A stretch of 64,000 nucleotides of DNA, taken from the NCBI GenBank assembly GCA_030679955.1, contig JAUXSF010000019.1:35846-99845 (forward strand), written 5' to 3'. The notes beneath the pieces were generated by a model. The model did not search any database. It worked only from the letters and a program-made list of their open reading frames with translations, and had not been told where the DNA came from. Position numbers and translations under genes: made by a program. The stretch comes from Chlamydiales bacterium (GTDB taxonomy: Bacteria; Chlamydiota; Chlamydiia; Chlamydiales; JAJFMA01). Positions 37,716-51,265 of this stretch are shown here, piece by piece. The first letter of the stretch is position 1; each line of letters opens with the position of its first letter.

Positions 37716-39350
37716 ATGCCTCTAAGCCGACTGAAAATTCTTTTTGCCCTTGGATCCCTTACATTGCTCATTTTATTTGGGCTGACGGCAGTATATAGCT
37801 CCAAGACAGCCTTGCTATTGCATGCTTATTCCCCGATGGACGACGCCTACATCTTTGTGCGTTATGCACATAATATTCTCGGGGGGCATGGAGTCGTGTG
37901 GAATCCTGGTGAGGGCAGCACCTACGGAGCCTCTAGTGCGCTTTACCTCGGCATTTTAACTGCTGCAATGGGAGCATCATCGCTCGATGTCGGCGTGATA
38001 TTACAGATATTGTCCTGGTCAATGGCCGTAGCCTTTGCGTTTGCGGTCGTCTGGGCTGTGCGTTCACAGTGTCGTAGTGACGTAATGCGCAGTACCGCGC
38101 TAATTCTATTTCTGGTGATGGCCTTTGTTTTCACATCAAAAGCCTTTCTATATCATGCGCTTACGGGAATGGAAACAACGACTGCTCTCGTGACAAACAC
38201 CCTGTTAATTGGGCTAGTTTTGCGACTTATACAGAGTCCTTCTACCGCCAAGGCCATTGGTGTGGGAGTTTTGGGTTGGCTGTGCTATTCCGCACGTCCG
38301 GAAACGGGCCTGTACGCTGTTTTCTTTCCCTTGGCCGCTATTTGGCTGATGGGCAGCGGAAAGCGCCTAGCGCTAATTGCGTGGTGTTTAGGGACTCTCG
38401 CAGTACTCATTGGTTTGGACCTGATAGTCAAGCAGGTACTCTTTGGTTCGCCCTTGCCGCTCGCCTTTTTTGTGAAGCGCTTGGATTTTTACGAAGGTTA
38501 TACAGGACACGCCAACTGGAATACTGCAGGGTATGTGCTTCAGTTTATTCAGGAAGTCCTGCCTTTCCTCTTTATCCTAATCTTTACGGCCCAACGCAAA
38601 CATTTGCGTATGATTGCCGCCTTCTTGTTTCCCGTGTTTCTGCATATTATTTATTTATTTTTTGTCGTGCAGATTATGGGTAACAATGCTCGCTACTATT
38701 ACACGGCATTGCCATTTGTCATTGTCCCGGCGATGATCACGTTGGACGATTTCATTGCGGAGGAGCGATCGGTTCGCAACTTAATTCCGCGCTTGGCTTC
38801 TTGTGCCTTGTTATTCGTTATGGTCTCAACGCTTTTTGGTGAGAAAGTAGCCGGCTATTACCGCATACACGTCTTAGCAGCGAAGGATAGCAGTAATAAC
38901 CACTACATAGTTCCTTCATCGCGTACATTACCTACGCTTAAGTGGACAGAGGCTTTGGCTGGTGTGAGTAAGATTGTATCCAAACTGCCATCAGGGGCAG
39001 TAGTTGCCATGTCAGAGGTCGGCTATCCCGGCGTAGTAGCCCCAAACGTTAGTATTATCGACCTTGCGGGACTTAACGATAATGTGACAGCTCGTGGAGG
39101 CTTCTCAGTGGATAAGTTGCTAGATCGCAAGCCTGATTTTGTGTGGTTACCGCATCAGCACTACACCAGGCTGACAGCATCGCTAATCAATAGCCCGCGC
39201 TTTCAGCGCGAGTATGATGTGATTCCTGATGCCTTTGATTATGGCATTGCTATCAGGAAGCATGGTCCATACCGGGAAACTATCATCAAAAGTCTACGTC
39301 AGGTATGGCATGAGCGCTACCCTGGCATCCCTTTGCCAGCCTACCCATAG
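37716..39350 (+). CDS. Polytopic GT-C-fold glycosyltransferase (AftB/ArnT-like)
   Basis: DDAYIFVRYA...VWNPGE...YGASS in the first loop, GMET, RPE, IIDLAGLND and multiple TM helices. Strong AGGAGG RBS. Confidence 0.8.
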   Translation: MPLSRLKILFALGSLTLLILFGLTAVYSSKTALLLHAYSPMDDAYIFVRYAHNILGGHGVVWNPGEGSTYGASSALYLGILTAAMGASSLDVGVILQILSWSMAVAFAFAVVWAVRSQCRSDVMRSTALILFLVMAFVFTSKAFLYHALTGMETTTALVTNTLLIGLVLRLIQSPSTAKAIGVGVLGWLCYSARPETGLYAVFFPLAAIWLMGSGKRLALIAWCLGTLAVLIGLDLIVKQVLFGSPLPLAFFVKRLDFYEGYTGHANWNTAGYVLQFIQEVLPFLFILIFTAQRKHLRMIAAFLFPVFLHIIYLFFVVQIMGNNARYYYTALPFVIVPAMITLDDFIAEERSVRNLIPRLASCALLFVMVSTLFGEKVAGYYRIHVLAAKDSSNNHYIVPSSRTLPTLKWTEALAGVSKIVSKLPSGAVVAMSEVGYPGVVAPNVSIIDLAGLNDNVTARGGFSVDKLLDRKPDFVWLPHQHYTRLTASLINSPRFQREYDVIPDAFDYGIAIRKHGPYRETIIKSLRQVWHERYPGIPLPAYP

Positions 39351-39450
39351 TGCGAGAGAAGGGGGTAATGGGGATATTGTTACCTATGTTACCGACCGCA
39401 CCCAATTTGACGAGGGTTTAATCGTTCCTTTTAATGGTGCAAGTTCCATA

Positions 39451-39551
39451 TGTAAGAAAAACATAGTATTATTTCTTACATAAAACCTCGACCTAAGTTT
39501 TTGAAAGATAGCTCTTGTATTTGTAAGAAAAATACACTAATATTTCCTACA
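39451..39551 (+). promoter_or_regulatory. Two 30-bp palindromic operators overlapping a promoter of the AbiE-type operon
   Basis: TGTAAGAAA-N12-TTTCTTACA (39451-39480) and TGTAAGAAA-N12-TTTCCTACA (39522-39551). TTGTAT-N17-TAATAT at 39515-39543. Confidence 0.75.
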
Positions 39552-40177
39552 TGAAGAAGAATCAAAAAAAAATGAATAGCGTTGATAATCAGATCATTCA
39601 GCGAATAATCAACCGTGGACGTGGTGCTGTATTCGTTCCGATAGAGTTTTTGGATCTAGGAAGTCGGCCGGCTGTTGACATTGTTCTTCACCGGCTCGTT
39701 CGAAAAGGGACTATTCGTCGCCTTGCACGAGGGATTTATGATTTTCCTAAAGAACATCCTATACTTGGAAAACTTCAACCATCTCCAGAAAAAATAGCGG
39801 AGGCTTTGGTTGACCGTGATTGCACGCGTATTCAACCCACCGGCGCTTATGCAGCAAACATCTTAGGGTTATCTGAACAGGTTCCAGCTAAAGTAGTATT
39901 TTTGACAGATGGACCGAGCCGAACAGTAAAAATCGGAGCAACTACCATTCAGCTTCGACGAACAACTCCAAAGAACATGGCGATGGCAGGTCGGCTCAGT
40001 GGTCTTTTAGTTCAGGCTCTCCGTGAAATGGGTAAAGAAAACATTACCACAGAACGACTTGAGCATTTAATGCGGATTCTTCCGCTCGATCAACGACGAG
40101 AATTACTCAAAGACATTCGTCTTGTGCCAGAATGGATGCATTCCATTTTTAGAAAGCTGACAGAGGAAACACCTTGA
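39551..40177 (+). CDS. abiEi: AbiEi-type type IV TA antitoxin (DUF6088-like)
   Basis: LHRLVRKGTIRRLARGIY wHTH, then GAYAANILGLSEQVPAKVVFLTDGPSR. Overlaps the toxin start. Alternative start at 39572. Confidence 0.88.
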   Translation: MKKNQKKMNSVDNQIIQRIINRGRGAVFVPIEFLDLGSRPAVDIVLHRLVRKGTIRRLARGIYDFPKEHPILGKLQPSPEKIAEALVDRDCTRIQPTGAYAANILGLSEQVPAKVVFLTDGPSRTVKIGATTIQLRRTTPKNMAMAGRLSGLLVQALREMGKENITTERLEHLMRILPLDQRRELLKDIRLVPEWMHSIFRKLTEETP

Positions 40178-41610
40178 AACTTGATTTTTTAAAATTATCT
40201 CTTAACGAACGGCATTTGTATATTGAACAGGCTGCCAATCAAAAAAATGTATCTCCCATAATCATGGAGAAAGATTTTTGGGTGTGTTGGTTGCTAAATA
40301 TCCTGTTCGAGTCGGAGTTTGCAGGTAGTCTCGTATTTAAAGGTGGAACCTCATTGTCAAAAGTATTTGGGGCTATCTATAGATTTTCTGAGGACATAGA
40401 CCTATCACTGTCCCCTACTTTTCTTAAACTCCCTGAAGCCGCAACAACTCGTAATCAGGTCGACAAATGGATTAAGCGGGCTGAGGTGGCATGTGAAGAA
40501 GCTGTTCAAACTCAGATCATGCCTGTAATGGAAGCTTCAGTGTTGAGCGTACTGGGAAATGGGCAGCAGCGATTTGAGTTTTTGAAAGATCCTAATTCAA
40601 ATTCGCCGGTACTTCTTTTTCACTACCCATCATCTCAACCAACAGGATTTGCCTATATCAAACGGTCTGTAAAACTAGAATTTGGTTCTCTTACTGATCA
40701 GCAACCCACAGGACGTCATACGATAACGCCTTGGATTGCCGAAATTTTTCCCAAAGCATTTCTCGATTGGCGTTGTGAAGTCACGACTTTAGAGATAGAG
40801 CGAAGTTTCTGGGAAAAAGCTACGATCCTGCATGCGGAGTACCATCGACCGCTCGACAAACCAATACCAGATAGGTATTCACGCCATTACGCGGATACTT
40901 CGAAGCTTGCAAAGCACCCTGAGGCAATCCAAGCTATAAATCATCACGACCTTAGAAACCAAGTCGTTTCATGGAAGAGCCAGTTCTTTGGTAACTCATG
41001 GGCCAGTTATAACTTAGCCAAACCCGGGACCTTCCGCCTTGTTCCTCCTGCCGAAAGATTACCTGCGTTGCGACATGACTATCAGTTAATGCGAGACATG
41101 TACCTTACAGATCCTGAAAGTTTTGATGATATACTTACCACATTGTCCAATCTAGAACACCGCATCAATATAATTAGTAGTGAAGGCGAGGCCAATCAAG
41201 GAAACGTCGGATTCTCGCAAAACGATGTAGAATCTTTGCCTTCATTAGGGGAAGTTTTGACAAAGAAAAAAGGAGATGAGCTAGTTCGAGTCGTTAGGGA
41301 AATTTTAGCGGCAAACCCTAACGCTCATGATACTTCCCTAAATGAACGTCGTCCATTGCAATTGTTAATCAAAGCTAACCTTGACTCACGTAAGAAGCTT
41401 GAATTGGTAGAAAGCTTTATCGAATTAGGAGCTGATATTCACTCCGCGGACAGCAGCGGATTAACACCCTACCAGGTTGCTATTGATAAAGGGCATAAAG
41501 CAATTTCGGATCTCTTACGTTCTAAAGGCGTTCGTCCAATGTCCCCGCCAGGAACTGGATATGTTCAACACTACAATATGTACCGTGAAATTCCATTGCC
41601 GTTAAGGTAA
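40174..41610 (+). CDS. abiEii: AbiEii/AbiGii nucleotidyltransferase toxin fused to C-terminal ankyrin repeats
   Basis: EKDFWV, FKGGTSLSK, RFSEDIDL, ERSFWEK and SRHYAD motifs. The extra ~140 aa include ELGADIHSADSSGLTPYQVAIDKGHKAISDLLRSKG. Confidence 0.88.
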   Translation: MKLDFLKLSLNERHLYIEQAANQKNVSPIIMEKDFWVCWLLNILFESEFAGSLVFKGGTSLSKVFGAIYRFSEDIDLSLSPTFLKLPEAATTRNQVDKWIKRAEVACEEAVQTQIMPVMEASVLSVLGNGQQRFEFLKDPNSNSPVLLFHYPSSQPTGFAYIKRSVKLEFGSLTDQQPTGRHTITPWIAEIFPKAFLDWRCEVTTLEIERSFWEKATILHAEYHRPLDKPIPDRYSRHYADTSKLAKHPEAIQAINHHDLRNQVVSWKSQFFGNSWASYNLAKPGTFRLVPPAERLPALRHDYQLMRDMYLTDPESFDDILTTLSNLEHRINIISSEGEANQGNVGFSQNDVESLPSLGEVLTKKKGDELVRVVREILAANPNAHDTSLNERRPLQLLIKANLDSRKKLELVESFIELGADIHSADSSGLTPYQVAIDKGHKAISDLLRSKGVRPMSPPGTGYVQHYNMYREIPLPLR

Positions 41611-41682
41611 CATGCCAACCCCAATCCCGTCAACGCGAAGAAAACAGTTCACACCAACTCTACAAGTAATTTGCGAGGAAAA

Positions 41683-42555
41683 ATGAGCGAATGGTATAAA
41701 GACGACGCCCAAAAGCAGCGTCTTCTAAACCTAATCAATTCGGAAGGATATGTCCTAGAAGATAGGGTGGGAGCTTTATTATCTAGAAAGTACCCTGCTA
41801 CCTGTACAAAACAGGTTTATGAACAACCTGGCTCCGTAGATAAAGAGCGTGTAGAAATCGACGCGTGGCTAAAAAGATCAATAGCCTATTTTATTTTCGA
41901 AGTTAAAAATAGCGCTTACGACTGGGTTTTTCTTAAAGGCCCTCGTACAGATCAACATTTCCACTTTATATATTATACAAATAATGGACCATATACATTA
42001 GCTGTAATGCCAAGCAATAAGCACCCCACTAATTCTATCGTAACAGAAGCTGTTTTCGAGATTTTGGTAGATTCTAAAGGTGTATTTTTAGAAAAACAAA
42101 AGCAAAAACCCGTTCATAAAGGAAAAGAATTTCCTGAAAGACCCTCTGGCAGAGAAATTGTCCGCCCTGCTATCAAACAACTTTTAAAAAATTTAGAGAC
42201 ATTGTCATATTATGAGCTCTTTAATATACAAAAAGCTGTGAAAGATGTTCCCTACGTCGGTTTATATCCGATTTTAGTTACTAATGCTAAACTTTATGCT
42301 TTTACTTATGACGAAACCAATGTAGATGAAAAGGCAGACTTATCAAGCCTACAAGACTTATCTGAACAGCCTTGGCTGGTGTTAAATTACTCTGAGATAT
42401 TAAGATGGGACGAAAATCTCCGACAAATAATAAACCATATTGGTTTTGATTTAAATCAAGTACATGATTCAAGAGATTACATGGGATCTCATTTGAAGTC
42501 TGTTTTCGTTGTGAATCAAAATCATCTCCTAGATTTTCTCGAAGGTTGGTTATAA
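41683..42555 (+). CDS. PD-(D/E)XK restriction-endonuclease-like protein
   Basis: SEGYVLEDRV...EIDA...FEVK..DWVF arrangement. AT-rich gene with GAGG RBS before ATG 41683. Confidence 0.7.
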   Translation: MSEWYKDDAQKQRLLNLINSEGYVLEDRVGALLSRKYPATCTKQVYEQPGSVDKERVEIDAWLKRSIAYFIFEVKNSAYDWVFLKGPRTDQHFHFIYYTNNGPYTLAVMPSNKHPTNSIVTEAVFEILVDSKGVFLEKQKQKPVHKGKEFPERPSGREIVRPAIKQLLKNLETLSYYELFNIQKAVKDVPYVGLYPILVTNAKLYAFTYDETNVDEKADLSSLQDLSEQPWLVLNYSEILRWDENLRQIINHIGFDLNQVHDSRDYMGSHLKSVFVVNQNHLLDFLEGWL

Positions 42556-42759: not shown

Positions 42760-43746
42760 CTAAAAAGCGTGCTCGAACATGAGTACCGGGAAGAGCTTAC
42801 TGCCTTGCAGCATCTCGCGTCCGTGATTTTCGAAGAGGCGTTCATTGTACTCTTTGGCCGCCAAGCCAGCACCATTGATGCCGCCGAAGTACCAACCTGC
42901 CTCTAGGCTGGTCAGAATGATACCCATGGGGATATTTCCATTATCGAAAAAGCATACAGCAGCAGCTGTAAAAAGTGTGTTGAGCAGGAATGATGTTAGG
43001 GCAGTTTGTTTTTGCCCGACATAGAGATAACCCGCTCCTGGAAGAACAGCATTTAGAGTCTGTGCCTTCTTCACCGATTTAGCACAGCAGCAATATTCAT
43101 CAAAATAGGGGAGCATCTCTTCAGCTCTGGGGTGCTCAGAGGCATGAAAGCGAGCGCAAGAGATGTCGCCATCGATCACGCTGTGGTACAGTACCAAGTC
43201 GCTTTTGGTTTCGGGCGAGTATTTATTGATAAGTTCCAGAATGACTTCTGCTCGCTCATGGCGGCAATCTTGGCTGTAGGCATCATACAAAAGGATTAGT
43301 AGATCACCAAAGGCAGGGAAGCATGGCCCTGCAGAGACCAGTTCGCTACATTCAAATGCTTCAACAGCTTCCTGGTACTTACCGCCTATGTAGTAAGCCA
43401 AAATGATGCAGTAGTCAATCTGTAGGCGTCTTTCCACATTTTCACACGGCAGTAAAACGTTGGCGCGTTTGTAAGCGGTGATAGCGCGGTAGAGATCAAG
43501 ATCGCGGGCAAAATGGTTGCCGATGATCAGCTCTTTAGACCACTCTTCAGATTTCTCTTGGGGTGTCAATGGAGGAAAAGAGGTTGGCAAGCAAGCCACA
43601 AGCCTCTTAGGCGGGCTGAAGCAAATAGTAGGCTCCAGCTCGTAGCAATTCTTTTGGCAGCCAGTTAAGCATATGGCCACTAGTACAATGGCCCACAAAC
43701 AGCTTTTACAGCTGTTATTTAAAGCAGGACGTAGGAGCTTGGTCAT
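42760..43746 (-). CDS. TPR-containing lipoprotein with a C-terminal hydrophobic segment
   Basis: Lipobox LTGC, TPR-like DLYRAITAYKRA and LAYYIGGKYQEAV, and LPGAGYLYVGQ. The start overlaps the end of sctC. Confidence 0.8.
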   Translation of the reverse strand: MTKLLRPALNNSCKSCLWAIVLVAICLTGCQKNCYELEPTICFSPPKRLVACLPTSFPPLTPQEKSEEWSKELIIGNHFARDLDLYRAITAYKRANVLLPCENVERRLQIDYCIILAYYIGGKYQEAVEAFECSELVSAGPCFPAFGDLLILLYDAYSQDCRHERAEVILELINKYSPETKSDLVLYHSVIDGDISCARFHASEHPRAEEMLPYFDEYCCCAKSVKKAQTLNAVLPGAGYLYVGQKQTALTSFLLNTLFTAAAVCFFDNGNIPMGIILTSLEAGWYFGGINGAGLAAKEYNERLFENHGREMLQGSKLFPVLMFEHAF

Positions 43747-46700
43747 CGCGGTATCCTGGAAGCCATCCGTTACTTTCACAGCGTTCGTTGATGCGTGGAA
43801 GGTTCATGAACTCTAATCCTTCGTCAGCTTCGTACTTCCAGCGTGGTTTTGCACGGCCCTTATCTCTGTAGATATTTTGTTGTGTTTTGGTGATGTCGTC
43901 GAAGTCCCACTCTGTATCTACGATCTGAGGTCTGATGAAAATCATCAGGTTACGTTTTGCGCTAGTATTTTCCATACGGCTGCCTGCGGCGCCGATAATT
44001 GGTAGTCCACCCAGGCATGGGATCTGGCTACGTGTTTTCTTTTTCTCTTCCTTAATCATACCGCTGATGACCACGAAAAATTCGTTGGGTACGTGAACTT
44101 TAGTGATCGTTCTGCTAGTCGCGGTAGAAGGTCCGGGACTGATGTTTGCGGATCCTGTTCCACCTCCACCACCACCAGTTTGAGTCGTGATGGTAGAGCT
44201 GACTTCTTGTTCAATCTCTAGTGTGATGATGTTGTTGTTACCGATCTGTGGGCGCACGCGTAGCGTTGTGCCGACGTCACGGAATTCAAAGTTCTGGCTG
44301 ACGATGGTACCGTCATTGTTAACAACGTTCTGAGTTTGGAAGGCGATGTTCTCACCGACGAAAATTTCAGCTTCATTGTTATCTTCAACAATAATTTTTG
44401 GATTTAAGACGATTTCAGAATTGATATCTGTGTGAACCGCCTGAACCAACGCTCCCATCGTGTTAAAGAACTGGCCGCCCTTAAGAATTCTTCTGCCGAT
44501 AATGCCTAGGTTATAGCCAGGGGTACTTACGGCGGCTAGCGTTGCAGCATTTATCAAGGCTTCTGTGGCGCTGGTAGCGCCGTCAGTTGTAGATGAAGCT
44601 GATGCAAGGTCCACAGCGCCAATCAGTGGTGTAGCAGCGCCCGAAGCAGACGGCTGTCCGCCAGAGAATCCTTGCGCGGCACCCACTTGTTGGCCTTTAA
44701 AATTCGACGTAATATCAACGGCATACGTTAAAGAGTCAGTTATGGAGGTGTCGAGGATCAACATCTCAAGGAAGACCTGACGTAGTGGTAGATCTACTTC
44801 CTCGATCAATTCCCTTACACGCGCCAACGCATCGGGTGTTCCTGTAACGATGAGCGAGTTGGACGACTCGATCCATTGGATGCTATTGATCGCGTTAATT
44901 AGGTCAATACTAGCCTTTTCGCTTAAGCGTAGGCTGTCTCCAATGCGTGTTAGAGCGTCCTGGAGCTGATCCCCTTGACGATACTGTAACTTGTGTATGT
45001 AGAACTTCGTCTGTGCCAGGAACTCTTCTTGCGTCATTTCCGGTACTGGAATGATTTGTGGCAGCGTCACTTCTTTTTGGCCTGTAGGAAGTAGGTCTAC
45101 AGGACCACCTTGACGTTCGCCGCTTGCTTCTCTTTCGAGGCGAGCACGGATTTCTTCAGCTTTTTCCTGTTCTGTCTGCTCTTTGGTTTGATACTGGTCA
45201 CTTGATTTGTCTTCAGGATTGACCAGCGCTTGACCGCCTTTTGTCAGGTCCTCAAGAGTCAAAATCTTTGTTGTGCCTTCTAGCGCATCTAGGTGTTCAA
45301 AAATACCTATCGTCCGCTTAACAAGTAGTGGGCTGCTGACGACGAAGACGCTGTTTGTCGCCAAATGAGGGACGAAAACGATGTTTTGCTTCTCGGCAAA
45401 AGGACGGATAATCTCTTCAGCAAGAGGGATCAAGTTTTCGATAAAGTTGTTATGTCCCACATACTGACCAATTTCATAGGCTGTTGTAGGCATATCAAGT
45501 GCATGAATTAAGTCCGCAATTCTGTCGACGTTATCAGTAAAGTCAGTGATCAACAGGTTGTTTGTCTCGGGCAGCACCTGAATCAACGCTTGCGCAGACA
45601 TCACAGGAGTAACGATCTCTTGCATCTTCTCTGCCTGGATGCTGTCCAGTTGGAAGACACGAGTGACCAGTTGGGAGTGTGGTATTGCTTTATCACCTTC
45701 CTTGACAACCTGAACAGGGCCACGTGTACGATCACTCTTATGAATGATAATGTTGTTGCCTTGTTCGATAACTTGTAAGCCGTGGATGCGCAATTCCTGC
45801 AACAGAGCGGCCATAATGTTATCGACGGAGGTTGGCTGCTCGGAAATAACAGTGATTTTGAACTGAAGATCTTCGTCATTGAATACAAAGTTCTTATTCG
45901 TTAGTTGGCTAACGAACTTGACGTATTCAGTCATAAGGATGTCACGGTAATTGATCAGGAGGCCTTGTGGCTCTTCCTCTTCTTCAATTACAATAACCGG
46001 CTTTTCTTTTTGCTTTTGCTTTTCTTCAGCAGGCTTTTGCTTCTGGGGCTCAGGCACACCGCTTTCGAAAAGTGTTTCTTGCGCAATGGTTTTATCCAAG
46101 CCGCGACGAGGATCCAGGTCGCGTTTAATAGATGGTGCTAACCCGGGCGCTGAGCGGAATTTTTCCCATTCATCAAGAGCTGTGTCTCCGCTTTCTTCAT
46201 CGGCTTCATAGGCTTCGTCGTCTGGCTGACCAACTTGGGAGTTGGAAACATTGGACGAGGAACTTTCTGCTGCGTAGCTTGGCTCTTGTTCGCTTTCGCT
46301 TCCGCTACCGATTGCGGTCGTGCGATTTTTTTTTTGAAGGGTAACCTCTGGTTCCCTCTTGGTGTTCTCGGCGACCTCTCCAGAGGTTGTCGGGTGCACC
46401 CGACTTGGCGAGTTTTTTCTTGCCTTGTCTGGGGGTTGCATTTCTTCAAAATGATCGTCTTGTGTTGGGTCATCCCAGACGATCTCAGACGTTTCTTCTT
46501 CATCCAACCATGGCTTGTCGCCATCCCACAGCAGACCTTCGCGGCGAACGCCAAGGACGGAGTGTTTGCGGCTAAGCGGGTCAATGCCAGGTTCACCTAT
46601 TGGCAAGTCTTCATAAGCAACGACGTCTTCGTCTTCGTCATACTCAATGAAATTGCCCTGATCGTCATAAGAGCCGATAACGAAAACGCCGGTTGGCTCA

Positions 46701-49700
46701 TCGTCATAGCCTTCATAGTCGTCATTATCGTCGTAAATAGGAGCGCCGACAGAAACGAAGGAGTTTGGTTCGTAACCGATGCTGTCTTGTAAATCACCAG
46801 CATGTGCGAAGTCGATGAAGAGGGAGTCGCGACGCTGCGTAGTTTTTTGTTGTGGTTGCTTAGCCGGTCCCACCAACGATTTCATGGTTGGAGAGGAGTC
46901 AGAGTGAGGGGTCACTTCAACAGCAAAACGGTGCTTTTTATCTGCTGCGTCGGCAACAACATTCTTACTAACGCGAGATACCTTGCCAGCTTGTGAGCGT
47001 GCCTTAGAGGGTTTAGTGACGTCGACAACTTTAACAAAATTGTATTTCGATTTGCCAGCGCGTAGGTCAGCGCGGCCAAATGCTGTTGAAATACCTTCTG
47101 GTTCAGTGCTGGTCAATGTAACAGAGGTGTCGACTCTAGCTTGTGGTGTTTCACGACGATAATCTCCACCTTTAATGCTTGGAGCAAGGGCGACAAGCGT
47201 GCCATCACCTTTGCGACCAACATATTCGCGGATGCCTACCTGCTCTTTTCCATGCAGGTTGACGCGCATATTCTCAGCAGCTACATCCGTAGAAGTACCT
47301 GGAAGCTGCGTAACGCGTCCGCTTACCTGCAGGTGATCTTTGTTTGTAGACAGAGAGGAGGTTGGGCCTTCACCAATGTAGTAGTAGTAGCCGCCTTGTA
47401 ATTCGCGAACCTGTGGCTGTTCGTCATTAGCGCCCTTGCGCACTCCGGTGCGACCGGAAGCAATATCTAAACCACCAGGAACTTTACCTTCTGCGGTAAC
47501 ATGCTGTGAGCCTGGACCGGGGGAGGCACTCCACATTTCTTGTGGTCTGCGCGCAACTTTAACATTGACGCTTTCCAGGCCTTTTGGATCTACACAAGCA
47601 GTTAGCTGCTTAATCTGTGTCGTGTCGAAGCATTGTTTTTGCGTTTCGCCAACTACATTACATTGTGGGTAAGTGGTGCGCTCAGAGCACACGGGATAGC
47701 ATACAGCCTGGCCACCAGCTTGCGAAGACATCGGTTTGCACAACGGTTCAGCAGAATCCCCTAAGGGCTGTGTAGCTAGTCTTAATGCTTTGGTCGTATC
47801 GTCGATGTAGTCTGCTGCTTCTCGCTCTTCTAGCGCAATATCTTGCCCTGGATTGGTCTGAAAGTCGGTTTTCGCAGCAATGAAAGTACTTTGATTGCTC
47901 AGGCCAGGCGTGTCTAGACCCATTGCCTCAGCTTGCTCTTGGCCTATCAAACGCGCTGGAGGAGCTTTAGGTTCGTAGGTAGCTCGTAAGGTTTTACTAT
48001 CGCTAGCATTGGCAATAACCACACTGTCGGTTCCTAGGCCCGCCGGCTCTAACTGAACAGGTTGTTTGTCGGCAATGAAGGAAAGATTGCTGCCCAAGGA
48101 TGGTGCCTCGGCATTCTCTATAGCAAACGATTGACTTCCGCCCAACCCACTTACTACTTCAGGTGCAGGCATTTGGTTTAATGCTTGCTGCTGTAATTTA
48201 GTGAGGATTGAAGCATCAAGAGCTGGTGCAGCTGCTTTTTCTTTAGGTAGCTCAGATGCAGCGATAAATGACTCTTTCACCACACTGGCTGTTTTTGGCA
48301 AGGGTGCAGCCGCGATAAGTTGCTCTTTTGCCAAGACGGTTGTTTTTGGCAATGGGGCAGTTGCTGTAAGCGGCTCTTTTACCAAGATGTCTGATTTTGG
48401 CAAGGGTGCAGCCGCGACAAATTGCTCTTTTGCCAAGACGGTTGTTTTTGGCAATGGGGCAGTTGCTGTAAGCGGCTCTTTTACCAAAATGTCTGTTTTT
48501 GGCAATGGGGCAGTCGAGATAAGTTGCTCTTTTACCAAGACGGCTGCTTTTGGCAATGGGGCAGTTGCTGTAAGCGGCTCTTTTACCAAAATGTCTGTTT
48601 TTGGCAATGGGGCAGTCGCCGTAAGCGGCTCTTTTACCAGGACGTCTGTTTTTGGCAATGGGGCTGCCGAGATAAGTTGCTCTTTTGCCAAGACGGCTGC
48701 TTTTGGCATCGGCGCTGCGGACATAAGTGGCTCTTGTACCAACACAGCCGTTTTTGGCAATGGCGCTGCTGCGATGAACGACTCTTTCACCATCGCGACA
48801 TGCGGAGCCATCTCGGTATGCTTCTGGCTTAGAGTAGCCACTCGAGTAGTAGCTGGTGGTTTAGTGGCTGGTGGTTCCTGTGCAACGGCGAAAGCATCAG
48901 TAGTAGCGGATGCCAGGATCTGTGCGTAATTTGGCTTTTCGATCAGTGCTGTTCGTTCCGGTTTACCCGAACCATTTGCGACCAAACCTTGGAAGCGCTC
49001 CACAGGACTTCTGGTAGAAACCTCAGGGGAAAGAGTGCTGTTCTGCTCTGTTCTCAGGTTGTAAGGATCGGTGCTTACAGGTGCGTTAATCTCGTCCTTG
49101 CGCATTGTGTTAAGTAAGGCAGCAAAAACTTCGTCATTATGCAGCGTAACACCAGGGAACTCTTTGGCGACAACTTCAGGCTCAATGCCGGGGAAAGTGA
49201 TGGTCGTTTCTTCAGCAACGCGTGCTTTAGCGACTACTTCAGGTTCTATCCCTGGAAAAGTTAAGGTCATTATGGCAGGTGCTAGTGTCTTGGCGGTTGA
49301 AACAACCTCTGTGCCCATTTCATAGGCAGGCTGTCGTGTTTCAACCAAATTATCCAGCACGCTCCAGAAGTCTGGGGCTTGTTGTTTTTTTGCTTCGGTA
49401 GGCTGCGCTTTTGTACCCGCTATTGTTTCTACCAATTGCTTGGGAACGTGTGGCGTTGGAGGCGTTAGCTTTTCTACCTTGTTCCAGATCTTTGGATCAG
49501 GAGCACTCTGCGCGATGCCTTGGGGGTTTCTGACGTTACTGCAGCGATCACGAGCTATAGCTAAAAAAGACCTAGAAGCTGAATCGAGTACGCCAACAGC
49601 GTCGATATCTACCGTCACAGCGCCAATAGTGTCTTTTTCACAGTACACGCTAGGATCGGTAGGAGATAGCTGCTCACCCGCAAAGGTGTTGGTATGATCA

Positions 49701-51265
49701 ATATCTTCTATCGTATCATAATGTGTGCCTGGAAAGGCGGCTCGAGCGGCTGTTGGGTGATCGGGCGTTAGATACGCGATCTTGTGTTCACATTCGGCAC
49801 CGATACAATCGCTATCTGTAAAGATGTTAGAAGGGGAGGGTGCAGATGACCATAGTCCTGAGCGACCTTCTACATAAGAATGCGCTAAAATGGTTGTATG
49901 TTCTGCCAAAGGCTCGTTTAAATGTGTCAGCTCTTCCAGTGCATAAACAAGCTGAAGGGGAAGTAAAGACTCTTCTTCCTGTCTGTTGATACCTAAAATA
50001 ACTCTCTCGCTAGCAGGATACGCCCAGTCATATAGATTGTTTGCTTGTGCCAAGGAGTGTTCTCCGGAGAGAGAAACTAGCTGGCAATCAGCGCAAGCAA
50101 TGCTCGGAAGCGATTGAAAAGGTTCCAACTGACGCGTGAGGTGTACGCTGTCTGTCAAAAGAATGATGCAGGATCCTGCCACGCACTCATTTTCGCCGGT
50201 GGGGTGTCCATGTGTAACATCGCAGCCGTCGCAAAGAAGGTATGGGATATCCCTTACTACCGTGTCAGTGCGGTTTGCATCGACTATCCTGAAATCCGCC
50301 GCGTTACTTTGATCCGCTAGCACGATCTGTAGATGAAGTTTATCCGCATCACCAAATTCCCCGGAGGTCATTCCAGTGATGGTAGATACATTGCTAGAAA
50401 CAAGTAGTGGAGGAATCGGTTCTTCAAGGCATCCAGGGCATGATTCGTTGGTTTCGGTAGCGACCGAATGCAGTGATGTACCATATCCGGAAGTTTGTAC
50501 TTCAAAACCATAAGAGCCAGAGGCGTCTAAGTAGGCGGGCACATACGAAAGCTGAGATACTGCAGGACGTGTGATCTCGATATCCGATGCTTCATAACGC
50601 TGTGAAGAAGCGATAATGTGGTAAGATGCACCGCTGTCAGCATTCAGGCAGCCATCACAAGCAAACACTGGCACATTGGTTAGCTCAGAAGCTGCTGGTG
50701 CAGCACATTCGTTAGTTAAGTATTGGCGTAGCCAAGGCGATGCAGCAGCAGTGTGGCAGGATTCCCATGATGATGGTGAAGCTTGCGCACAAGTTCCAGT
50801 ACATAGATGAGAGGCTACCGAAGCAACTTTCTTTGCGGTTTCTTGTTGGTAAAGAAATGTACGGCACAAATTAGACGAGTCGTCGCAAGGGACAAATCGG
50901 CAATCCTGTTCGTCTATGCAATTCCTTGCATGTTCGGCGGTGATTTTAAAGCGCTGGTTAGAGGGAGCATCCGCAAACCAATCTACCTCAATATCGTTTT
51001 CGCCGTCGACATCGCTTGGCTTTCTAGCCAAAGGATCGATCTGTCCAGCTACTAGCGCAGAAGTATGGTGGTTAAGAATATTTTTTAAGTGACCACTTGA
51101 TTGCGTGCTTTCATGTATGGGCCAAAAGTGCTCTGCAGCACTGCTAGGAGCTTCACCCGCAACCAAACCTTGGCTGGCGATAAAGACCGGCATGGAGGCC
51201 CACCATAGCTTAGCTAGTAGTGGCTGGCGAAGATCTGGCTTGTGTTTTTCTGTTCTAACAACCAT
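43715..51265 (-). CDS. sctC: T3SS outer-membrane secretin CdsC/SctC with a ~1750-aa N-terminal extension
   Basis: The C-terminal ~750 aa carry secretin N-domains and core (LRQVFLEMLI, NPKI, DVGTTLRVRP, IPCLGGLPIIG, RNLMIFIRPQI). It is the last gene of the chlamydial cluster after pkn5. Confidence 0.92.
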   Translation of the reverse strand: MVVRTEKHKPDLRQPLLAKLWWASMPVFIASQGLVAGEAPSSAAEHFWPIHESTQSSGHLKNILNHHTSALVAGQIDPLARKPSDVDGENDIEVDWFADAPSNQRFKITAEHARNCIDEQDCRFVPCDDSSNLCRTFLYQQETAKKVASVASHLCTGTCAQASPSSWESCHTAAASPWLRQYLTNECAAPAASELTNVPVFACDGCLNADSGASYHIIASSQRYEASDIEITRPAVSQLSYVPAYLDASGSYGFEVQTSGYGTSLHSVATETNESCPGCLEEPIPPLLVSSNVSTITGMTSGEFGDADKLHLQIVLADQSNAADFRIVDANRTDTVVRDIPYLLCDGCDVTHGHPTGENECVAGSCIILLTDSVHLTRQLEPFQSLPSIACADCQLVSLSGEHSLAQANNLYDWAYPASERVILGINRQEEESLLPLQLVYALEELTHLNEPLAEHTTILAHSYVEGRSGLWSSAPSPSNIFTDSDCIGAECEHKIAYLTPDHPTAARAAFPGTHYDTIEDIDHTNTFAGEQLSPTDPSVYCEKDTIGAVTVDIDAVGVLDSASRSFLAIARDRCSNVRNPQGIAQSAPDPKIWNKVEKLTPPTPHVPKQLVETIAGTKAQPTEAKKQQAPDFWSVLDNLVETRQPAYEMGTEVVSTAKTLAPAIMTLTFPGIEPEVVAKARVAEETTITFPGIEPEVVAKEFPGVTLHNDEVFAALLNTMRKDEINAPVSTDPYNLRTEQNSTLSPEVSTRSPVERFQGLVANGSGKPERTALIEKPNYAQILASATTDAFAVAQEPPATKPPATTRVATLSQKHTEMAPHVAMVKESFIAAAPLPKTAVLVQEPLMSAAPMPKAAVLAKEQLISAAPLPKTDVLVKEPLTATAPLPKTDILVKEPLTATAPLPKAAVLVKEQLISTAPLPKTDILVKEPLTATAPLPKTTVLAKEQFVAAAPLPKSDILVKEPLTATAPLPKTTVLAKEQLIAAAPLPKTASVVKESFIAASELPKEKAAAPALDASILTKLQQQALNQMPAPEVVSGLGGSQSFAIENAEAPSLGSNLSFIADKQPVQLEPAGLGTDSVVIANASDSKTLRATYEPKAPPARLIGQEQAEAMGLDTPGLSNQSTFIAAKTDFQTNPGQDIALEEREAADYIDDTTKALRLATQPLGDSAEPLCKPMSSQAGGQAVCYPVCSERTTYPQCNVVGETQKQCFDTTQIKQLTACVDPKGLESVNVKVARRPQEMWSASPGPGSQHVTAEGKVPGGLDIASGRTGVRKGANDEQPQVRELQGGYYYYIGEGPTSSLSTNKDHLQVSGRVTQLPGTSTDVAAENMRVNLHGKEQVGIREYVGRKGDGTLVALAPSIKGGDYRRETPQARVDTSVTLTSTEPEGISTAFGRADLRAGKSKYNFVKVVDVTKPSKARSQAGKVSRVSKNVVADAADKKHRFAVEVTPHSDSSPTMKSLVGPAKQPQQKTTQRRDSLFIDFAHAGDLQDSIGYEPNSFVSVGAPIYDDNDDYEGYDDEPTGVFVIGSYDDQGNFIEYDEDEDVVAYEDLPIGEPGIDPLSRKHSVLGVRREGLLWDGDKPWLDEEETSEIVWDDPTQDDHFEEMQPPDKARKNSPSRVHPTTSGEVAENTKREPEVTLQKKNRTTAIGSGSESEQEPSYAAESSSSNVSNSQVGQPDDEAYEADEESGDTALDEWEKFRSAPGLAPSIKRDLDPRRGLDKTIAQETLFESGVPEPQKQKPAEEKQKQKEKPVIVIEEEEEPQGLLINYRDILMTEYVKFVSQLTNKNFVFNDEDLQFKITVISEQPTSVDNIMAALLQELRIHGLQVIEQGNNIIIHKSDRTRGPVQVVKEGDKAIPHSQLVTRVFQLDSIQAEKMQEIVTPVMSAQALIQVLPETNNLLITDFTDNVDRIADLIHALDMPTTAYEIGQYVGHNNFIENLIPLAEEIIRPFAEKQNIVFVPHLATNSVFVVSSPLLVKRTIGIFEHLDALEGTTKILTLEDLTKGGQALVNPEDKSSDQYQTKEQTEQEKAEEIRARLEREASGERQGGPVDLLPTGQKEVTLPQIIPVPEMTQEEFLAQTKFYIHKLQYRQGDQLQDALTRIGDSLRLSEKASIDLINAINSIQWIESSNSLIVTGTPDALARVRELIEEVDLPLRQVFLEMLILDTSITDSLTYAVDITSNFKGQQVGAAQGFSGGQPSASGAATPLIGAVDLASASSTTDGATSATEALINAATLAAVSTPGYNLGIIGRRILKGGQFFNTMGALVQAVHTDINSEIVLNPKIIVEDNNEAEIFVGENIAFQTQNVVNNDGTIVSQNFEFRDVGTTLRVRPQIGNNNIITLEIEQEVSSTITTQTGGGGGGTGSANISPGPSTATSRTITKVHVPNEFFVVISGMIKEEKKKTRSQIPCLGGLPIIGAAGSRMENTSAKRNLMIFIRPQIVDTEWDFDDITKTQQNIYRDKGRAKPRWKYEADEGLEFMNLPRINERCESNGWLPGYRDDQAPTSCFK
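48242..48787 (-). repeat. 51-bp (17-aa) coding tandem repeat, ~10.7 copies, inside sctC
   Basis: Unit approximately KEPLTATAPLPKTDILV / KEQLISAAPLPKTTVLA. Confidence 0.95.
49151..49262 (-). repeat. Short coding duplication (TFPGIEPEVVAK x2 plus partial) inside sctC
   Basis: TLTFPGIEPEVVAK...TITFPGIEPEVVAKEFPG. Confidence 0.8.

Follow-up and report, generated by a model that had tools for sequence, protein, structure and literature searches.

An ankyrin tail shared by AbiEii, other nucleotidyltransferase and Fic toxins in environmental Chlamydiota

The window analysed here is a stretch of 64,000 nucleotides from a Chlamydiales bacterium (contig JAUXSF010000019.1 of assembly GCA_030679955.1). 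It contains an AbiE toxin-antitoxin operon in which the AbiEii nucleotidyltransferase (NTase) toxin is prolonged, in the same open frame, by a C-terminal ankyrin tail. An earlier interpretation of the DNA letters, called hereafter the sequence-only reading, had described this arrangement as a fusion of ankyrin repeats to an AbiEii toxin. The fusion is no isolated case, as the same tail occurs on about ten mutually distant toxin lineages, Fic enzymes included. As shown below by sequence comparison, the tail constitutes a family of its own in environmental Chlamydiota, common to about ten unrelated toxin types that belong to two enzyme folds.

In toxin-antitoxin systems, the toxin is as a rule a compact enzyme under the sole control of its antitoxin. 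The passage of one selected ankyrin domain among about ten toxin lineages would therefore mean that one binding partner matters for the use of these toxins. If this partner is a host protein, the family would show how bacterial addiction modules become tools against eukaryotic cells. If it is bacterial or derived from a phage, AbiE and Fic systems would be subject to an accessory control of a new kind. The question can be tested directly, with one tail as bait and one partner to be sought, and such toxins can be spotted easily in chlamydial genomes by using the tail as a sequence marker.

A genuine and selected fusion

Past the AbiEii domain, 146 further codons follow in frame without any stop (41170-41607). 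The two observations on which the fusion had been proposed were confirmed. The enzyme domain ends at its usual C-terminus, since the Pfam match extends to residue 322 and nothing of the PADLOC profile is left to align beyond residue 336, and the frame then runs on for about 140 residues, positions 41170-41610 encoding residues 333-478 plus the stop codon in a single open frame. No stop was found after the NTase domain in the frame itself, and a second contig of 11,233 bases, produced by another assembler from a run that is possibly the source sample, shows 0 differences over 40100-41800, a region that spans the junction. This contig derives from the same data and hence provides no independent check.

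Further examples of the fusion were provided by a homologue search against 5.8 billion clustered proteins, of which the best 120 matches were examined. Among these, 27 other proteins of 449-488 residues align over 97-100% of the query at 67-80% identity, and the tail is kept in the alignment as well as the enzyme. Intact fused genes are present in 12 other genomes of the same order. Over 78 pairs from 13 intact genes, the tail has a median ratio of nonsynonymous to synonymous substitution rates (dN/dS) of 0.153, compared with 0.107 for the NTase part. On account of this low value, the tail is a coding domain under selection and not a chance read-through. The idea that an assembly or annotation artefact joined two separate genes retains a negligible probability, as no observation in its favour was made: the fusion is common to the 27 full-length homologues, which come from other samples, and to the 12 other genomes, and the second contig agrees with it within the limit just mentioned.

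Anatomy of the abiE operon

The elements of the operon, all on the forward strand of the window, are the following:

39448..39555, + strand: putative AbiEi operator pair, a 37-nucleotide element in two copies, 71 nucleotides apart
39551..40177, + strand: abiEi antitoxin gene, 208 residues, DUF6088/AbiEi type; its TGA stop codon overlaps the TTG start codon of the toxin gene (TTGA)
40174..41610, + strand: whole abiEii-ankyrin toxin gene, one open frame with a TTG start, 478 residues plus the stop codon
40174..41178, + strand: AbiEii (DUF1814-type) nucleotidyltransferase domain, residues 1-335, recognized by Pfam and PADLOC
41179..41235, + strand: linker, residues 336-354, polar, predicted to be disordered, of differing length among homologues
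41236..41607, + strand: ankyrin tail, residues 355-478, made of an N-terminal cap helix pair, two ankyrin repeats and one C-terminal helix

The locus is shown to be an intact toxin-antitoxin module of the AbiE (abortive-infection) type, organized as one overlapping operon. Four arguments lead to this conclusion: profile scores far over the cut-offs, an invariant active site, an overlapping antitoxin gene and operator-like repeats upstream. The toxin matches the Pfam family PF08843 (AbiEii) over residues 41-322 with 119.6 bits, for a cut-off of 22.5, and the PADLOC AbiEii profile PDLC02289 over residues 2-336 with 320.8 bits (profile positions 4-305 of 309). The antitoxin, located directly upstream and overlapping the toxin gene by 4 nucleotides, is recognized by Pfam as DUF6088 (169 bits, cut-off 25) and AbiEi_4 (24.1 bits), and by the PADLOC AbiEi profile PDLC02226 (238.4 bits). 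The active-site motifs of the toxin are GGTS at residues 57-60 and EDIDL at residues 73-77, within which G57, G58, T59, S60, D74, I75 and D76 are invariant in 28 of the 28 full-length homologues aligned. The motif block aligns weakly with the Protein Data Bank (PDB) chain 6y56_A (E 0.26), and T59 and S60 of the GGTS loop are candidate phospho-acceptors by position only.

The first 37-nucleotide copy of the putative operator contains a perfect inverted repeat with arms of 11 nucleotides and 12 nucleotides between them, and the second copy overlaps the abiEi start codon. The core pattern of the repeat was found in 22 of 99 loci, corresponding to 17 distinct places. Sixteen of these are AbiEii1-type loci, the type of the window, where the pattern lies upstream of abiEi whether the tail is present or absent; the remaining one lies 2.5 kb away from the AbiEii3 gene in genome G007. 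A promoter scan at the operon returned 4 sites for 4.9 expected by chance, a number that is not above chance. The AbiE operon of Streptococcus agalactiae reportedly carries inverted-repeat operators in its promoter region and is said to be autoregulated. By their position and pattern, the repeats at 39448-39555 are a putative AbiEi operator pair, consistent with an autoregulated AbiE operon.

An ankyrin domain below the Pfam cut-off

Taken in isolation, the tail of the window protein escapes the standard annotation: over residues 372-455, Ank_2 scores 21.4 bits for a cut-off of 27.3, and Ank_4 16.5 bits for 22.7. Homologous tails aligned with it pass the Ank_2 cut-off (59.6, 54.3, 44.1, 38.7, 37.8, 31.3 and 31.2 bits). 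A phmmer search with the tail returned 32,014 representative proteins at E<=0.001, and the top of the list consists mostly of long proteins matched in many stretches. When the whole toxin was compared with the PDB, 271 distinct sequences were obtained at E<=0.01. Nearly all of the 60 matches listed are DARPins, other designed ankyrin-repeat proteins or ankyrins. In each of the 60, the best-matching stretch falls within residues 358-467. A look-up of the tail in the Atlas gave best rows carrying Pfam ankyrin families, with a score of 0.98.

Structure prediction points in the same direction. For the tail, an AlphaFold2 model based on 34 diverse members of the family reached a predicted local distance difference test score (pLDDT) of 82.4 and a predicted template-modelling score of 0.76. 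It displays helix pairs at 4-26, 40-63 and 78-96 followed by a helix at 108-116 (tail numbering). Compared with the PDB by Foldseek, this model gave 19 matches at E<=0.001, with a probability of 1.00 and template-modelling scores of 0.57-0.68 for most of the top rows. The matches listed, among which 3ANK/4ANK, DARPins and ankyrin-B, are almost all designed or natural ankyrin proteins. By predicted fold and by sequence similarity the tail is thus an ankyrin domain, even if the copy of the window lies under the Pfam cut-off. The sequence-only reading had announced a linker leading into about two ankyrin repeats. The linker and the ankyrin fold stand, the model of the tail matching ankyrin proteins; the repeat count was slightly short, as a cap pair and a C-terminal helix accompany the two repeats.

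In the full-length model (pLDDT 70.6), linker residues 336-355 have a pLDDT <50. Most homologues of 457-459 residues are devoid of linker residues and begin their tail about 4 residues after the last NTase helix, and others have up to about 30 more. A predicted complex between the NTase domain (1-335) and the tail obtained a score of 0.00 and a mark of 0.32, and it was used as evidence neither way. Nine columns are kept in >=90% of the 34 tails: N36, H38, L41, Q42, D72, L76, T77, P78 and Q80. Among these, N36, H38 and L76 presumably occupy positions facing the binding groove, by analogy with DARPin design. The tail of the window ends two residues later than that of most relatives.

Distribution of the tail across toxins and genomes

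The genomic distribution was established by a scan of 400 scored Chlamydiota genomes at E<=1e-12, one further genome (G094) being unscored. The tail was found at 59 places in 53 of the 400 genomes, and 57 of these places are joined to a toxin. All 59 were classified by the DNA upstream of the tail:

AbiEii1-type, the type of the window: 20 places, 13 intact and 7 broken or truncated
AbiEii1b, a distant paralogue of the window's type: 1 place
AbiEii2: 4 places
AbiEii3: 2 places
AbiEii6: 3 places
NTP_transf_8 nucleotidyltransferase: 2 places
Fic/mob_myst_B: 25 places
Short fragments with no recognisable toxin: 2 places

Two of the 25 Fic places were scanned against the "mobile mystery protein B" model and passed its cut-off of 124.4 with 137.2 and 151.3 bits, the others being assigned by their similarity to those two.

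A protein search with the tail only retrieved 42 proteins at E<=1e-10, of 262-837 residues, some of them with other N-terminal parts. Four N-terminal types are added in this way by the protein database. P0272 and P0278 match AbiEii with 120.2 and 137.6 bits and represent separate subfamilies of it, P0279 is the incomplete product of yet another AbiEii type, and the P0271 group has an NTase-like N-terminal part of about 375 residues with no Pfam family above cut-off. P0280 and P0281 contain a Fic domain. When the N-terminal domains were compared by BLASTP, only 2 of 66 pairs were alike along most of their length (36% and 63%), 33 gave no hit at E<=10, and the other hits were short or at most 27% identical. 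The tails, compared across toxin types, are 31-79% identical.

A search directed at stand-alone tails yielded 19 proteins of 96-213 residues. Of the nine that were inspected, five start within a toxin C-terminus and four within the tail; P0137 also starts with the end of a P0271-type domain. From the start points of those inspected, these short proteins were taken as fragments of broken or truncated genes.

Relatives are present in at least nine families of the order. Within the sample, the tail is confined to families with larger genomes and is found in none of the 29 genomes of family f36, which measure about 1.1 Mb. The named sources of the tail are all Chlamydiae (Parachlamydiaceae, Rhabdochlamydiaceae and "Chlamydiae bacterium"). 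A search for related loci with a single tail gave one true relative, from a chlamydial metagenome-assembled genome (MAG), and three generic ankyrin matches, a result with little bearing on the range. Two separate tail loci coexist in five genomes (G393, G273, G263, G133 and G360), as an AbiEii1 and an AbiEii2 locus in G393 and an AbiEii1 and an AbiEii3 locus in G263. In G393, G273 and G263, one locus has a tail 69-72% identical to that of the window and the other a tail at 40-47%. In G074, the two places listed are pieces of one broken gene.

Exchange and loss of the tail

The tail tree (53 rows) does not follow the toxin classification. Tails of the AbiEii1 type, the P0271 group, P0272 and P0278 are intermixed in it, and the tail of the window is closest by identity to the P0271 tail (79%), which belongs to a different toxin type. 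The Fic tails form one clade with a support of 95. Since tails are intermixed across toxin types, the tail is shown, at the level of these sequence comparisons, to have moved between toxin genes, and recently so among some of the NTases. The tail of the window has the longest end branch (0.18) of its immediate group.

The history of the enzyme was approached by a quick maximum-likelihood tree of the NTase domain comprising 97 of the 120 best homologues, as 22 were dropped because the end-motif pattern was unmatched and 1 was too short. All 28 tail-bearing rows fall in one clade of 62 rows (support 99). The same clade includes 25 rows devoid of a tail and 9 in which a truncated tail or a remnant of the linker persists; such remnants are seen for instance in P0029, P0081, P0040 and P0064. 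The other clade, of 35 rows, is free of tails. On the well-supported branches, the state must have changed at least 3 times, and 10 changes are required by parsimony. This tree and the remnants point to repeated losses of the tail within the AbiEii lineage of the window. Tail remnants were also searched 3' of tail-less relatives, and none was detected at E<=10 in 16 loci (L005-L013 and L015-L021, with flanks of about 1.5 kb).

Two individual cases were noted among the relatives. In locus L095 (G425:C2), an intact NTase part of the window's type (757-1764) and a piece of tail (2994-3242) lie on the same strand about 1.2 kb apart, and an insertion appears to separate them. P0089, a tail-less NTase relative of 308 residues (81% identity over 64% of the query), is labelled as originating from a Verrucomicrobia MAG and bears the only non-chlamydial name among the close homologues listed.

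Antitoxins, mobile elements and acquisition

The tail-bearing toxins remain components of toxin-antitoxin pairs. Their own antitoxin gene lies directly upstream in 23 of the 23 intact loci with enough flanking sequence (7 AbiEii1/1b, 3 AbiEii2, 2 AbiEii3, 3 AbiEii6, 1 NTP_transf_8 and 7 Fic). The upstream gene is DUF6088/AbiEi in all 7 AbiEii1/1b loci. For the other NTases (9 loci), it encodes AbiEi-like proteins of 204-288 residues, of which the one scanned scored below the cut-off of the NCBIfam AbiEi antitoxin model, the rest being named by position, size and sequence appearance. In the 7 Fic loci, it encodes a helix-turn-helix (HTH) protein of 153-189 residues; the best match of the one scanned was mob_myst_A, below cut-off (72.9 for 122.6). 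In a 24th locus, L022 (G143:C26, 3121-5100, - strand), both genes of an AbiEii2-type pair are broken. The antitoxin gene is interrupted by a stop, the toxin gene loses its frame where eight consecutive G occur in the glycine-loop region, and another stop precedes the tail-bearing part. This pair is either a decaying copy or the result of homopolymer sequencing errors.

Five loci (L023, 2159-7484; L071, 4620-9965; L056, L073 and L022), representing two toxin types, share a larger organization. AbiEi and the toxin with its tail are followed by a DUF5681 protein whose gene overlaps the toxin end, a MerR-like protein of 268-280 residues and a large serine recombinase, the gene of which shares its 3' end with a tRNA gene, for Phe in two loci and Leu in three. 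Judging from this gene content, the whole forms a small integrative element, with the toxin-antitoxin pair as its visible cargo. A search for its far boundary found no direct repeat of >=16 nucleotides in three loci.

This recurrent backbone raises the possibility that the tail is a passenger, that is a conserved arm beside a recombination hot spot of mobile elements with no function of its own. The same backbone after the tail in five loci of two toxin types, together with the intermixing of tails between toxin types, would be explained in this way. Nevertheless, a dN/dS of 0.153 and a frame kept intact at 13 of the 20 AbiEii1-type places are at variance with an idle sequence, and no sign was seen of an overlapping coding or regulatory sequence that would mimic purifying selection. 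Moreover, the tail is found without the backbone at the Fic, AbiEii3, AbiEii6 and NTP_transf_8 loci, and a search of the window's genome for the DUF5681, MerR-like and serine recombinase genes found none of them. The passenger explanation is consequently very improbable.

The module of the window is shown to be accessory and acquired horizontally, on the basis of its low GC content, its absence from the same genus and the existence of relatives in at least nine families. Its GC content is 0.41-0.445, against 0.47-0.51 for the flanks, and that of the patch including the downstream gene is 0.355-0.445. Three genomes of the same genus contain only paralogues at 35-38% identity or nothing, with neither a fused gene nor a tail.

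Proposed function of the tail

The enzymatic half can be discussed by analogy with better-known relatives. According to a recent preprint (bioRxiv 10.64898/2026.01.19.700257), MenT toxins prevent the charging of tRNAs by adding nucleotides to their 3' CCA end, and AbiEii of S. agalactiae also modifies tRNAs. The same preprint and a second article (PMC11375011) indicate that the antitoxin binds the toxin and induces auto-phosphorylation of an active-site Thr/Ser. By analogy, the catalytic half of the fused protein would nucleotidylate tRNA 3' ends and block translation, and AbiEi would switch it off by induced auto-phosphorylation.

The tail, for its part, probably takes no part in catalysis or antitoxin recognition, as both toxins and antitoxins are unrelated between lineages and the tail stays the same. 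Its presence on mutually distant toxins likewise argues for one common partner and not for a fit to one NTase or antitoxin. The columns kept in >=90% of the 34 tails suggest, at the sequence level, that this partner is itself conserved. We favour, although tentatively and at somewhat less than even confidence, a reading in which the tail acts inside the bacterium as a portable module that docks onto one conserved partner protein. It would tie in trans any toxin fused to it to this partner, in order to sense a trigger or to hold the toxin at a given site, and the module would otherwise still be a toxin-antitoxin pair of mobile elements. The preference for an intrabacterial role comes from the retention of the antitoxins and, for the window's type, of the operator-like repeats, as well as from the location of several modules on mobile elements.

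Several points weigh against this interpretation. Docking is deduced solely from which fold the tail has and where the tail occurs, and the range beyond Chlamydiota was judged from the source names of the matches, with no systematic search. Both trees are quick ones with many unresolved forks. Since the tail has been lost repeatedly, basic toxin-antitoxin function can do without it. The tail of the window itself departs from its family (41236-41350, residues 380-392): E and R occupy residues 391 and 392, in place of the G and H of >=90% of tails, and the first loop is atypical, so that its binding may be altered or weakened compared with relatives. Finally, an obligate-intracellular phylum and a repeat of eukaryotic type fit a host-directed role as well as a bacterial one.

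Such a host-directed role, which the sequence-only reading had mentioned, is the first alternative to the docking module. Once released by secretion or lysis, the toxins would be guided by their tail to a protein or compartment conserved in eukaryotes, and the antitoxin would serve as self-protection before export. Legionella AnkX, which combines Fic and ankyrin, and the Bartonella Bep effectors, which originate from FicTA, are precedents. The named tail sources, all Chlamydiae, and the absence of the tail from the small genomes of family f36 agree with this scenario, and both Fic AMPylation and tRNA-end nucleotidylation could hit eukaryotic targets. A further precedent is Rickettsia VapC2, the toxin of a toxin-antitoxin system in an obligate intracellular bacterium, which reaches the host cytoplasm according to PMC12321070. 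Against it stand the antitoxin kept upstream at 23 of 23 intact loci and the operator-like repeat upstream of abiEi at 16 AbiEii1-type places. The N-termini of the toxin types are unrelated and hence offer no shared N-terminal export signal. A C-terminal type IV signal is also made less plausible for the window's copy, as neither of the type IV coupling-protein families PF02534 and PF10412 was found in its 99.76%-complete genome. Lastly, the tail is lost repeatedly and the module stays. A host effector is accordingly possible but unlikely.

A more elaborate version is that of cross-kingdom toxin-antidote modules, in which mobile elements of environmental chlamydiae would provide tRNA-modifying NTases and Fic enzymes with a common ankyrin handle. 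This handle would grip a conserved host protein while the toxin acts in the host cell, and the pair would serve to manipulate the host or to create in it a dependence on the bacterium. In functional terms, the Wolbachia Cif toxin-antidote pairs offer a comparison, the parts here being those of a classic bacterial toxin-antitoxin system. This version is regarded as improbable.

The second alternative is a trigger sensor or a gate acting in cis, comparable to CapRel, in which the tail keeps the toxin inactive or senses a protein of a phage or mobile element and then releases the activity. This corresponds to the gating that the sequence-only reading had put forward. Defence systems usually combine one constant domain with many alternative toxic domains. 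A constant tail with alternative toxins reproduces this pattern, and AbiE is an abortive-infection family. Fic-based defence ("SoFic") is also on record, as mentioned in bioRxiv 10.64898/2026.04.11.717937. The location of several modules on mobile elements and the short distance of about 4 residues between the last NTase helix and the tail of most homologues can be added in its favour. However, a separate antitoxin is always there and makes one in cis unnecessary, and a single tail would need to fit catalytic domains of two folds. The putative binding residues are strongly conserved across families, which is atypical for an arms race with phages, and the linker of the window protein is long and predicted to be disordered. 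A sensor or gate of this kind therefore appears doubtful.

Comparison with known systems

The closest described systems are AbiE of S. agalactiae and MenAT. They share with the window's module the DUF1814 toxin family with its GGT/S and DxD motifs, an upstream overlapping gene for a winged HTH antitoxin, inverted repeats before the operon and the expected mechanism. The described toxins end with the NTase domain, whereas about 140 further residues constitute here an ankyrin domain, and the host of the window's module, unlike theirs, is an obligate intracellular bacterium.

AnkX lacks a cognate antitoxin and is secreted as an effector; its long ankyrin array aids substrate binding. The resemblance lies in the association, in an intracellular bacterium, of a nucleotide-transferring enzyme of toxin type with ankyrin repeats, and is even closer for the sister proteins that combine Fic and ankyrin. 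Unlike AnkX, the chlamydial proteins keep an antitoxin, have a short tail of three helix pairs and belong to toxin-antitoxin operons. In the Bartonella Beps, a toxin derived from FicTA bears a C-terminal BID domain, a type IV secretion signal derived from a relaxase, and the antitoxin was lost. There too, the toxin of a toxin-antitoxin system gained a portable C-terminal module, but here an ankyrin domain plays this part, antitoxins have been retained, and no type IV coupling-protein family was found in the window's genome. With an overlapping antitoxin present and PF02534 and PF10412 not found, the window's protein was not classified with secreted effectors of the AnkX or Bep type.

CapRel resembles the fused toxin by its N-terminal domain directed against translation and its C-terminal protein-binding domain, a possible trigger sensor. 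It has no separate antitoxin, its C-terminal domain being itself the antitoxin, whereas a separate AbiEi exists here and the same tail serves unrelated toxin folds. A CapRel-type system was rejected on the basis of this AbiEi and of the separate antitoxin in all 23 intact related loci. The Fic bearers are comparable to the mobile mystery protein A/B pairs (TIGR02612/TIGR02613), as they match mob_myst_B and have an HTH protein upstream. The mob_myst_B model ends at about residue 190-205 of these Fic proteins, and the ankyrin tail is an addition of the chlamydial members. Finally, the family was not assigned to polymorphic toxin systems, as its polarity is reversed: the variable toxin is N-terminal, the constant tail C-terminal and the protective gene upstream.

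The AbiEii-ankyrin architecture could be retrieved from existing resources, as the sequence-only reading had proposed to check. Combinations of PF08843 or PF02661 with ankyrin repeats are already present in precomputed protein-database annotations. In the full-text literature accessible apart from subscription journals and supplementary files, no AbiEii-ankyrin or mobile-mystery-protein-ankyrin fusion was found, nor any tail shared between toxin families. The papers naming both AbiEii and ankyrin treat the two terms separately in those examined. The architecture is thus on record as data, and no printed description of it was found.

Neighbouring genes

Downstream of the toxin, an open reading frame (ORF) at 41671-42555 (+ strand) encodes 294 residues and has the lowest GC content of the region (0.355-0.37). 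It matches no family in Pfam, NCBIfam or PADLOC. In the Atlas, it falls in clusters of hypothetical proteins, mostly from Pseudomonadota, with sub-threshold structural leads towards NERD and PD-(D/E)XK nucleases. This ORF may be part of the same acquired patch. Upstream of the operon, an ORF at 37716-39350 (+ strand) encodes 544 residues with no Pfam or PADLOC family at the thresholds used, and its hydrophobic sequence looks like that of a multi-pass membrane protein. Further downstream, an ORF at 43715-51265 (- strand) encodes 2516 residues, of which only the last 750 or so correspond to a GspD-type secretin (N0, Secretin_N and Secretin, from residue 1771). They are preceded by an N-terminal extension of about 1750 residues without Pfam family, which includes a run of proline- and lysine-rich tandem repeats.

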